Shown in pieces: positions 35,635 to 39,374 of a DNA stretch of 64,000 nt. Position numbers and translations under genes: made by a program. Origin of the DNA: Escherichia coli (GTDB lineage: Bacteria > Pseudomonadota > Gammaproteobacteria > Enterobacterales > Enterobacteriaceae); NCBI RefSeq assembly GCF_016026235.1, contig NZ_CP065613.1; one strand, written 5' to 3'. The notes under the pieces were generated by a model, which saw only the letters and a list, made by a program, of their open reading frames with translations, had not been told where the DNA came from and did not search any database. Within the stretch, counting starts at the first letter, position 1; every line of letters begins with the position of its first letter.

Positions 35635-36312
35635 ATGAGTGCGTCGTTGGCGATTCTAACCATCGGCATTGTACCTATGCAGGAAGTTTTGCCGCTCCTG
35701 ACAGAATACATTGACGAAGATAATATTTCCCATCATAGCCTGCTGGGGAAGTTAAGCCGCGAAGAAGTGATGGCGGAGTACGCGCCAGAAGCAGGCGAAG
35801 ACACAATTCTCACATTATTAAATGACAACCATCTGGCCCATGTTTCGCGTCGCAAAGTAGAGCGTGACCTGCAAGGTGTGGTTGAAGTGCTCGATAATCA
35901 GGGCTACGACGTCATTATATTAATGAGTACGGCAAACATTAGTAGTATGACTGCGCGTAATACGATCTTTCTTGAGCCGTCGCGGATATTGCCACCGCTG
36001 GTTTCCTCTATTGTTGAAGATCATCAGGTGGGGGTTATCGTACCGGTTGAGGAGTTGCTGACCGTTCAGGCGCAAAAATGGCAAATTTTGCAGAAACCGC
36101 CGGTATTTTCATTGGGTAACCCCATTCATGATTCAGAACAAAAAATCATTGATGCCGGGAAAGAATTACTGGCGAAAGGCGCAGATGTCATCATGCTGGA
36201 TTGTTTGGGATTTAACCAGCGTCATCGCGATTTACTGCAAAAACAGCTCGATGTTCCTGTCTTGCTCTCTAACGTATTGATTGCACGGTTGGCTGCGGAA
36301 TTACTGGTGTAA
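35635..36312 (+). CDS. aroM: AroM family protein
   Basis: 225-aa ORF in conserved position. Confidence 0.9.
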
Positions 36313-36383: not shown

Positions 36384-36668
36384 ATGCTTCAAAGTAATGA
36401 GTACTTTTCCGGCAAAGTGAAATCGATCGGCTTTTCCAGCAGCAGCACTGGTCGCGCCAGCGTGGGTGTTATGGTTGAAGGCGAATACACCTTCAGCACC
36501 GCTGAGCCGGAAGAGATGACGGTAATCAGTGGCGCGCTGAATGTGTTACTGCCTGACGCGACCGACTGGCAAGTGTTTGAAGCCGGTTCGGTGTTTAATG
36601 TTCCCGGTCACAGTGAGTTTCATCTGCAAGTTGCCGAACCCACCTCTTATCTGTGCCGCTATCTGTAA
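36384..36668 (+). CDS. ppnP: pyrimidine/purine nucleoside phosphorylase PpnP (YaiE)
   Basis: 94-aa ORF ([17 protein letters not shown]...). Confidence 0.9.
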
Positions 36669-36875
36669 TTCCTCGCCTTCCCCTTGAACGGGAGGGCATT
36701 TTTCTGAAATATCCTTTCTTTAACCCATAATAATATTTCCTTTGCTGCGATTTTTTCAATTTCCGATATATTCATAATTTATCAAGGTTGATATAAATAT
36801 CAGTGAAGATCTCCAGATATTGTTGCGGAACTGGCTACGATAAAAGATAAATCAGATGATGAATGGTGGCGTGCA

Positions 36876-37148
36876 TTGCTGCAAAGTCGCAATGATCATT
36901 TGCGCCAAACGGCATTACGCAACGCACATACCCCGGCGTCGTTGTTAACGACATTGACCGAGTCTCGGCATCGGTCGCTAGCTATGAATAATCCACAGCT
37001 CGCTGCCGATGTGAAAACGACGTGGTTAAAAGAGGATCCATCATTACTCTTATTTGTCGAACAACCCGATCTTTCGCTGTTACGGGATTTAGTGAAAACC
37101 GGGGCAATGCGGAAAATTCGCAGTGAAGCGCGTCACTGGCTTGAGTAA
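36876..37148 (+). pseudogene. ykiA: ykiA-like ORF with TTG start; reading frame is open from 36807 with no ATG upstream
   Basis: ORF-track start codon is TTG; the same frame stays open upstream to a TGA at 36804-36806; lies at the ykiA position between ppnP and rdgC. Confidence 0.4.
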
Positions 37149-37259
37149 AAACAATGACACAACGTCCATGGAGCAAGTTACAGCATAAAACGCATAATAT
37201 TGCTGCGCTAAAAATTATTGCCCGCCGTAGCGAATAATTATATGCCTGGTGTGGCTTCG

Positions 37260-37297
37260 TACGCCGGATAAGACGCGGCAGGCGTCGCATCCGGCAT
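37260..37297. repeat. single REP element
   Basis: GCCGGATAAGACGCGGCAGGCGTCGCATCCGGC palindrome. Confidence 0.7.
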
Positions 37298-37314
37298 TTA
37301 AGGAAAATCAGCAA

Positions 37315-38226
37315 TTAACGTTGTGCTTCGCCACCTAATCCTTCAATCAGGTTTTGAATTAACGCTGCCAGTTCACCAGTCATCAGGATGAAATCGGCAT
37401 CAAAACGCTGGGCGAAATCTTCACGGTCGATATCTTCGTTTTGATCGCGCAGCTCGTCGCAGAACTTCAGACGCTTGAGCGAACCATCGTCGCACATCAC
37501 AAACTGAATGCGCTGCTGCCAGTCGAGCGCCAGTTTAGTCACCACTTTTCCGGCTTCAATGTGATTGGTGATCTCTTCGCTGGTCAGATCTTGTTTCTTC
37601 GCGCGGATCACTCCGCCATCTTCCAGCAACGATTTCAGCTCGGCTTCATCAAGCAGCTGGAAGCCCTGTGCCGCACTACCGGAACGTACCCATTCGGTCA
37701 GCGTCAGTTCAATCGGGTTTTCCATGCTCAATGGTACAACCGGTAACGACCCCAGGCTTTTACGCAGCAGTGCCAGCGTATCTTCCGCTTTTTTGGCACT
37801 GGCGCAGTCCACCATAATCAAACCGTTAACCGTGTCGATCCACATCATTGTCTGGCTAAAACGGCTGAAAGCACGCGGCAGCAGAGAGTGCAGCACTTCG
37901 TCTTTCAGCGAATCTTTTTCGGTTTTCTTCAGCTTACGCGCCTGTTCCGCTTCCAGTTTGGCGATTTTCGCTTCCAGCGCCTGTTTAATCACCGGAGACG
38001 GTAGGATTTTTTCTTCTTTGCGCGCGCAGATAACAATTTGACCATTGGCAACGTGCGTTAACGCATCGCTGTGCGATCCCATCGGAGGAACCCAGCCCAT
38101 CTTCGCCATGTCCTGGCTGCCGCATGGGGTAAATGCCATCGAGGCTAGCTGTTTTTCCATCTCTTCTGCACGCAGCGAAATCTCGCGGCTAAGACGGTAA
38201 ACCATTAAATTTTTGAACCACAGCAT
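37315..38226 (-). CDS. rdgC: recombination-associated protein RdgC
   Basis: ORF 37315..38298; ATG at 38226 ([12 protein letters not shown]...) gives 303 aa. Confidence 0.95.
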
Positions 38227-38350
38227 GATAATTTCCACGGCCTTGTCGTTAAATTTAGCGGGCATGATAACGAATTGTCGGCGGCCTTGCATTGCCAATC
38301 CGGTTGTCCGTCTCTACGCTATTGATATTGAAAAAAATAAGGAGAGTACC

Positions 38351-39283: not shown

Positions 39284-39374
39284 TGCCTGATGCGACGCTT
39301 GCCGCGTCTTATCAGGCCTACAAAATGTGCCAGAACCGCGTAGGGCGGATAAGGCGTTCACGCCGCATCCGGCA
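39284..39374. repeat. REP pair (BIME) in the mak-araJ intergenic region
   Basis: GCCTGATGCGACGCTTGCCGCGTCTTATCAGGCCTAC ... GGGCGGATAAGGCGTTCACGCCGCATCCGGC. Confidence 0.8.

Follow-up and report, generated by a model that had tools for sequence, protein, structure and literature searches.

The open reading frame between ppnP and rdgC in the window (the whole 64,000-nt stretch of Escherichia coli DNA that was analyzed) is very probably the pseudogene ykiA, a functionless 3′ remnant of a 759-codon accessory gene that belongs to the DUF2773 family. The parental gene, as reconstructed from intact alleles and a structural model, would have encoded a protein with a signal peptide, an N-terminal β-helix and a long HEAT/ARM/LRV-like solenoid; it was situated between ppnP and rdgC and followed by an ATGA-overlapping gene of the SF0329 family. 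We propose that a single deletion of 1,939 bp, the left end of which lies one base before the ATG, fused the parental 5′ UTR to codon 647, and that the start codon, the signal peptide, the β-helix and about 80% of the solenoid were lost in this event. There is no other reason for the open frame than that the fragment is short and has remained in phase with the parent.

The status of ykiA as a pseudogene is already known and the feature is an ordinary one, which can now be explained. The NC_000913.3 record gives ykiA (b0392; 408609–408950) the status of a pseudogene and ykiD (b4732) that of a CDS. All the strains inspected, one of them identical to the window, carry the PGAP description [quoted passage not shown] for the fragment. 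The result therefore matters little in itself (the status given by the reference genome and by PGAP is confirmed, and the start-less frame is accounted for); its by-products are a deletion mapped to the base and an allelic series at ppnP-rdgC.

The frame is located in the aroL-yaiA-aroM-ppnP-[ykiA]-rdgC-mak region of E. coli. Translation of positions 36747–37148 reproduced the extent given for it in a preliminary description (36807–37148): 113 sense codons run from 36807, a TGA (36804–36806) shuts the frame upstream, and a TAA (37146–37148) ends it. The features within the frame are the following:

36816–37148, plus strand: ykiA pseudogene remnant, parental codons 647–756 (the last ~9 α-solenoid helices), then a strain-specific premature TAA; a PGAP pseudogene with identical coordinates in strain FDAARGOS_943
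36876–36878, plus strand: TTG, the first canonical start in the frame, conserved as a Leu codon of the parent (..ALLQ..) and preceded by a weak Shine-Dalgarno (SD) sequence, GGTGG (−4.9 kcal/mol)
36984–36986, plus strand: in-frame ATG, ATT to ATG (Ile to Met) in the HS-like allele group; SD:anti-SD pairing of only −2.4 kcal/mol in the preceding 20 nt
37107–37109, plus strand: in-frame ATG, ACG to ATG (Thr to Met) in the HS-like allele group, 13 codons before the stop
37146, plus strand: G to T substitution, GAA to TAA, so that the frame stops 3 codons short of its K-12 end; the SD sequence of ykiD becomes GAGT instead of GAGG (−2.2 instead of −6.2 kcal/mol)

The frame had been described as having no ATG. 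This is incorrect for the window, which contains two of them in frame (at 36984 and 37107), the first 59 codons being without one; the statement fits K-12, whose frame has no Met codon anywhere. Both ATGs are lineage-specific substitutions that are also found in E. coli HS.

The length of the ORF alone is not compelling evidence. That it is derived from real coding DNA follows from its match to Pfam PF10971 (DUF2773), which aligned residues 36–113 of the 113-residue translation with positions 1–78 of the 81-position profile (E = 4.7e-39); the score of 132.8 bits is well above the gathering score of 25 bits and places the remnant in the family. Aligned with the intact protein, this model spans residues 679–759 of 759, i.e. 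PF10971 represents just the last 81 residues, the end of a solenoid and not an autonomous domain. Its boundaries appear to have been set by the K-12 pseudogene fragment rather than by a structural unit. As a further by-product of this study, the DUF2773 “domain” would thus be, according to the structural model described below, the tail of a 759-aa secreted β-helix/solenoid protein.

In O157:H7, the same position between ppnP and rdgC is occupied by an intact 2,280-bp (759-codon) gene for a “DUF2773 domain-containing protein”, whose stop codon overlaps (ATGA) the start of a 149-codon gene of the SF0329 family. LHM10-1 also carries the intact gene and SF0329 in this position. Comparison (blastn) of the window with the O157 locus (L006) revealed three collinear blocks: (i) window 36384–36810 and L006 1635–2061, comprising ppnP and the intergenic region and ending one base before the parental ATG, (ii) window 36816–37184 and L006 4001–4369, comprising the last 342 bp of the DUF2773 gene and the first 31 nt of SF0329, and (iii) window 37176–38298 and L006 4733–5856, comprising the end of SF0329, a REP element and rdgC. 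The window therefore differs from the intact locus by two deletions, one of 1,939 bp and one, in frame and within SF0329, of 366 bp.

The larger deletion takes the start codon and codons 1–646; codon 647 of the parent, in phase 0, is the first one left in the remnant. Comparison with other strains, which had been recommended as a way of finding an intact upstream start, did reveal the ATG, at L006 2063, right after the left breakpoint (L006 2061). The complete parental architecture (start codon, signal peptide, β-helix and full α-solenoid) is absent from the remnant, which retains only codons 647–756. Over these codons the intact 759-aa proteins of O157:H7 and LHM10-1 (WP_120795310.1 and WP_136698418.1) are collinear with the remnant, and their genes have the same upstream intergenic region; the nucleotide identity of the remnant to the parent is 94.4% (O157) and 96.2% (LHM10-1). 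The intact gene, found in ~8% of complete E. coli genomes, differs in possessing the ATG, the signal peptide, the β-helix and the full solenoid, and in being followed by an intact SF0329 gene. The preliminary description spoke of a small gene; the ORF is about 15% of a large one and was never small.

Intact orthologues at the same position, against which breakpoints can be defined, were found in O157:H7, LHM10-1, E. whittamii and Escherichia sp. E1V33. In the last two, which have no SF0329, the syntenic full-length gene shows 72–73% amino-acid identity, compared with 92–99% for the flanking proteins. This indicates that the long gene is ancestral at this site in the genus and that it evolves fast. 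The rest of the parental gene was not found elsewhere within the 64-kb window, and the missing 5′ 1.85 kb is present in 447 of 5,426 complete genomes (~8%), always as a single chromosomal copy, which argues that the change was a loss and not a relocation.

A scan of 1.84 billion representative proteins yielded 169 relatives of the parental protein at E ≤ 1e-3. About 35 of them (E < 1e-30) are mostly 750–800 aa long and align end-to-end with 25–35% identity. The AlphaFold2 model of the 759-aa parent (built with 40 sequences; pLDDT 91.3) predicts a signal-peptide helix (residues 2–16), a β-helix (~65–176) and an α-solenoid (240–759). Foldseek related the helical part to the PP2A A-subunit, importin-α and designed armadillo proteins (E ~1e-6), and some homologues of ~760 aa match Pfam LRV, LRV_2 and HEAT. 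Since the TM-scores are low (0.13–0.30), only a generic repeat architecture is shared with the HEAT, armadillo and LRV families, which lack the combination of an N-terminal signal peptide with a β-helix. The remnant itself gave no match to the LRV and HEAT HMMs at E ≤ 1, and the parent only a sub-threshold one to HEAT. PDB sequence searches with the parent and with SF0329 gave nothing significant, and neither protein matched a PADLOC defence model. The GC content of the parental gene is 42%, against 52% for the window, a low value that is typical of accessory DNA.

The possibility that DUF2773 and SF0329 form an obligate two-gene system was considered and rejected: three distant homologues of ~750 aa are stand-alone genes in unrelated surroundings, with neither a conserved partner gene nor SF0329, and E. 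whittamii also lacks the latter.

The sequence around the fusion point allowed us to define the ends of the larger deletion. It contains two features:

36801–36810, plus strand: left copy of a 9/10 imperfect direct repeat, CAGTGAAGAT, which includes the TGA at 36804–36806; in the parent a single T separates this copy from the ATG start
36811–36815, plus strand: 5-nt filler CTCCA, which replaces the parental AGC and is present in every truncated allele examined

The right copy of the repeat, CAGTGAGGAT, corresponds to parental codons ~641–644. LHM10-1 reads ATATCAGTGAAGATTATGA on the left and TGGAACAGTGAGGATAGCGATATTG on the right, with a 9/10 direct repeat CAGTGA[A/G]GAT, and the breakpoints fall between ATATCAGTGAAGAT and TATG on the left and between AACAGTGAGGAT AGC and GATATTGTT on the right. 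The junction in the window reads CAGTGAAGAT-CTCCA-GATATTGTT, and the TGA that closes the frame upstream is thus part of the repeat and formerly belonged to the parental 5′ UTR.

Each of the 12 truncated loci that were compared, one of them from a non-coli Escherichia, has the identical junction (GAAGAT-CTCCA-G...). Eleven bear the remnant, namely the window, K-12, HS and eight other alleles (of E. coli and Escherichia sp. MOD1-EC7003), and the twelfth, of the AR_0019 type, has kept the junction only. The common junction and filler strongly suggest a single ancestral deletion event. A clean repeat-mediated deletion was rejected, as the junction contains CTCCA in place of AGC, and for the same reason the mechanism of the deletion is only partly explained.

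The ppnP-rdgC locus is present in nearly all of the 5,426 complete E. coli genomes searched (megablast), and it is polymorphic. The intact gene followed by SF0329 (state 0) occurs, at ≥80% coverage of the two-gene module, in 444 genomes, mostly of O157:H7 and O145. The remnant followed by an intact SF0329 (state 1) is found in Escherichia sp. MOD1-EC7003, and the counts imply at least ~40 E. coli genomes of this kind. The remnant followed by ykiD (state 2a) is the form of K-12 and of the window, and is carried by 4,543 of the 5,426 genomes (84%). In AR_0019 and O104:H4 the remnant has been lost and SF0329 lies directly behind the old 5′ UTR (state 2b), and in VL7S7 an IS1 is found in place of the locus (state 3). 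At least 477 genomes (921 minus 444) have kept the internal part of SF0329 but lack the 5′ 1.85 kb of the parent. At least five allelic states thus coexist in Escherichia (loci L002, L004, L005, L006, L010 and L018).

The K-12 MG1655 allele (b0392) shares with the window the ppnP-ykiA-ykiD-rdgC order and the deletion junction, with identities of 95.6% over the 342-bp fragment and 97.1% over the 651-bp region. The allele of the window differs from it in being HS-like, with 8 amino-acid differences, two in-frame ATGs that K-12 lacks and a frame that stops 3 codons sooner. Among full-length alleles, that of LHM10-1 comes closest to the remnant: its 3′ end differs from the K-12 remnant by 2 nt over 342 bp, while the remnants differ among themselves by up to 8.5%, which implies that intact and truncated alleles have recombined.

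The pattern of polymorphism in 10 remnant-bearing strains points to relaxed constraint on the remnant relative to its neighbours. Polymorphic sites are spread over the three codon positions of the remnant (15/9/18; p = 0.22 against a uniform distribution), as opposed to 2/1/16 in ppnP and 1/1/9 in the last 100 codons of rdgC (Fisher p = 0.0006 for the remnant against both genes together). Such sites make up 13.1% of the remnant and 12.7% of the intergenic DNA next to it, compared with 6.7% of ppnP and 3.7% of rdgC.

Pairwise dN/dS values, which range from 0.36 to 1.01 among remnants and from 0.18 to 0.36 among intact alleles over the same codons, differ in the expected direction, but they were too noisy to be decisive, and the comparison of codon positions and densities was adopted for this reason. 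Most remnant pairs have dN/dS below 1, with small counts. The 11 remnant-bearing alleles show no frameshift inside the fragment, only one in-frame 3-bp deletion and a 1-nt insertion right at the junction; of roughly 2 nonsense changes expected, 1 was seen. With only about 40 substitutions on the tree, the missing frameshifts are uninformative. Decay has gone further in the lineage of the window: it shares with HS the changes Q to R, D to H, I to M, T to M and R to W, two of which (R to W and D to H) are radical, and it has acquired the premature TAA at 37146.

The first of the two readings in the preliminary description, a decaying gene, was supported by the loss of 1,939 bp including the ATG, by evolution like that of non-coding DNA and by the annotation of a pseudogene in the K-12 RefSeq record and by PGAP. 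The alternative offered there, non-canonical initiation, gained no support, as the TTG is a parental Leu codon behind a weak SD sequence.

Upstream of the remnant the window contains two features relevant to its transcription:

36675–36705, plus strand: intrinsic-terminator-like hairpin and T-run (stem 36675–36697, 8 pairs, tail ATTTTTCTGA), just past the ppnP stop at 36668
36669–36810, plus strand: retained parental intergenic region, 33% GC, with the promoter and 5′ UTR of the lost gene; collinear with O157 L006 1920–2061

Judging from its sequence, the terminator-like hairpin after ppnP is a predicted barrier that isolates the ykiA locus from upstream transcription. The intergenic region (36669–36810) differs from that of K-12 by one base. 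A ppnP-ykiA intergenic fragment of K-12, upstream of the remnant, is reported to drive a promoter activated by BglJ-RcsB, with a transcription start mapped by 5′-RACE (PMC3950696). In the window, a σ70-like match at 36704–36731 is a consensus hit only; the same kind of scan gave a weak 9/12 σ70-like match within the remnant (36965–36992).

The survival of the parental promoter suggests that transcription still runs through the fragment. On the simplest view, this promoter still fires and the remnant is carried along as a leader ahead of ykiD. The fragment itself is probably not translated: it would act as a long leader, read by ribosomes hardly or not at all, for ykiD, which is in turn an in-frame deletion remnant of SF0329. 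The promoter-bearing intergenic region is polymorphic at 18 of 142 sites among 10 strains, i.e. it is as variable as the pseudogene, which raises the possibility that the BglJ-RcsB-responsive promoter may itself be little constrained.

Downstream of the remnant, the following features were identified:

37154–37237, plus strand: 27-codon sORF, an allele (R11H) of K-12 ykiD, in which SF0329 residues 1–10 are fused in frame to the last 17 by the 366-bp deletion
37176–37184, plus strand: 9-bp direct-repeat microhomology AGTTACAGC at the junction of the SF0329 deletion, both copies of which are present in the AR_0019 and MOD1-EC7003 alleles
37263–37295, no strand assigned: REP element, a single 33-nt palindromic unit between ykiD and the 3′ end of rdgC

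The sORF is an allele of ykiD (b4732); its first 10 residues correspond to one end of SF0329 (PF25753, NF049912) and the next 10 to the other. It differs from SF0329 in its length (27 codons against ~150), and no family model matched it alone; NCBIfam gave nothing for either the remnant or ykiD. From the K-12 form it differs by R11H and by a damaged SD sequence, and its PGAP name is “hypothetical protein”. The substitution at 37146 that damages the SD sequence predicts reduced translation of ykiD in this strain. The 91 nt around this position were matched at ≥99% identity by only one of the 5,426 complete genomes, that of FDAARGOS_943.

The YkiD protein has been detected in K-12 by means of a chromosomal SPA tag in rich medium (PMC6001520). 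The words “pseudogene” and “remnant” are absent from that paper, and the origin of YkiD by deletion from SF0329 may therefore not have been noted. Another by-product of the present analysis is thus that a small protein detected in K-12 is an in-frame remnant of the widespread SF0329 family, which calls for caution in small-protein catalogues.

It is conceivable, though improbable, that the remnant has been kept as a functional RNA, a structured 5′ leader that controls YkiD, its open frame being incidental. The production of YkiD in K-12, the mapped BglJ-RcsB-dependent promoter upstream of the remnant and the fact that remnant plus ykiD is the majority state (4,543 of 5,426 genomes) are consistent with this. 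On the other hand, the diversity of the remnant equals that of intergenic DNA and gives no sign of constraint at the RNA level, alleles of the AR_0019 type drop the whole leader and keep SF0329 directly behind the 5′ UTR, and the SD sequence of ykiD is damaged in this strain. An sRNA or riboswitch was rejected as well: at a permissive threshold Rfam returned no family except the REP-derived naRNA4, with a weak match of the REP element below the gathering score.

A more elaborate scenario, which we regard as speculative and unlikely, places both remnants in one BglJ-RcsB-inducible transcript, in which decay would have yielded a new small protein, YkiD, and weak translation of the ykiA frame from the TTG or an ATT would couple ribosomes into ykiD via the ATGA. 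The ATGA overlap with ykiD is kept in most alleles and would allow translational coupling. If true, this would be a case of the birth of a small protein from pseudogenisation, kept in most E. coli.

It is also doubtful, to the point of being improbable, that ykiA is a real small gene, read from a non-ATG start (TTG at 36876, giving 90 aa, or ATT at 36819, giving 109 aa) and that its product serves some separate function as an independent, cytoplasmic piece of the helical repeat. In favour of this, all 11 remnant-bearing alleles retain an open frame, the sole indel within it being the in-frame one of 3 bp, dN/dS is mostly below 1, the TTG is conserved and preceded by GGTGG, and the K-12 locus is transcribed. 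However, the TTG is conserved as a parental Leu codon that is present in the intact genes too. It was correctly given as the start chosen by the ORF lister, and the statement that no obvious SD sequence precedes it also proved right: SD:anti-SD energies averaged −2.2 kcal/mol (sd 2.4), ~20% of arbitrary positions reached −4 kcal/mol or better, and the GGTGG falls within the top ~20% of this background. The near-cognate ATT at 36819 has an SD:anti-SD energy of −1.0 kcal/mol. The TTG is thus not a start codon with a credible ribosome-binding site that is conserved for its own sake.

Further arguments against such a gene are provided by the flat distribution of polymorphism over codon positions at an intergenic-like density, by this strain, which shortens the fragment further, and by the many E. 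coli that do without the remnant (the AR_0019/O104:H4 form, among the at least 477 genomes with the internal part of SF0329, and VL7S7 with its IS1). According to the structural model, a product from which the signal peptide and 85% of the parent are missing would be misplaced in the cell, and its solenoid would be incomplete. The start-less, cytoplasmic 15% of an exported repeat protein would have no obvious way to keep its function. A text search for b0392, DUF2773 and SF0329 found no relevant literature, and the papers that mention ykiA contained no ribosome-profiling or proteomic evidence on the frame.

The opposite order of events, i.e. an ancestral short form and a 759-codon gene of O157:H7 created by foreign insertion into, or fusion with, a small ykiA, is effectively refuted: the great majority of genomes (84%) have the short form and the GC content of the long gene (42% against 52%) is as often seen in imported DNA, but the remnant is the C-terminal end of a family of ~750–800 aa that aligns end-to-end in many organisms and is modelled with high confidence as a single chain, syntenic full-length genes exist in other Escherichia species, the frame of the short form opens within what is 5′ UTR in the long one and lacks a start codon, and SF0329 is likewise a complete, widely conserved family of 150 aa of which ykiD keeps only the two ends.

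A REP element had been reported to follow the ORF. The element is real, but it does not lie directly after the frame: it is 115 nt downstream, with the ykiD-type sORF in between. A second, inverted copy is located at 39285–39317, whereas 100 shuffled sequences gave 0 matches, which identifies the unit as a REP; its predicted hairpin has a folding energy of −28.1 kcal/mol. On the minus strand, a consensus scan revealed a terminator-like hairpin and T-run at 37221–37234, inside ykiD and downstream of rdgC. On the basis of these motifs, this hairpin and the REP may end rdgC transcription.

FDAARGOS_943 was the sole complete genome identical to the window over positions 36670–37320, but in its present form this assembly is a close relative of the source of the window and not the source itself. 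The two differ at aroM, which is intact (225 codons) in the window and carries an IS1 insertion in FDAARGOS_943 (window 35635–36312 compared with locus L001, 3–1143).
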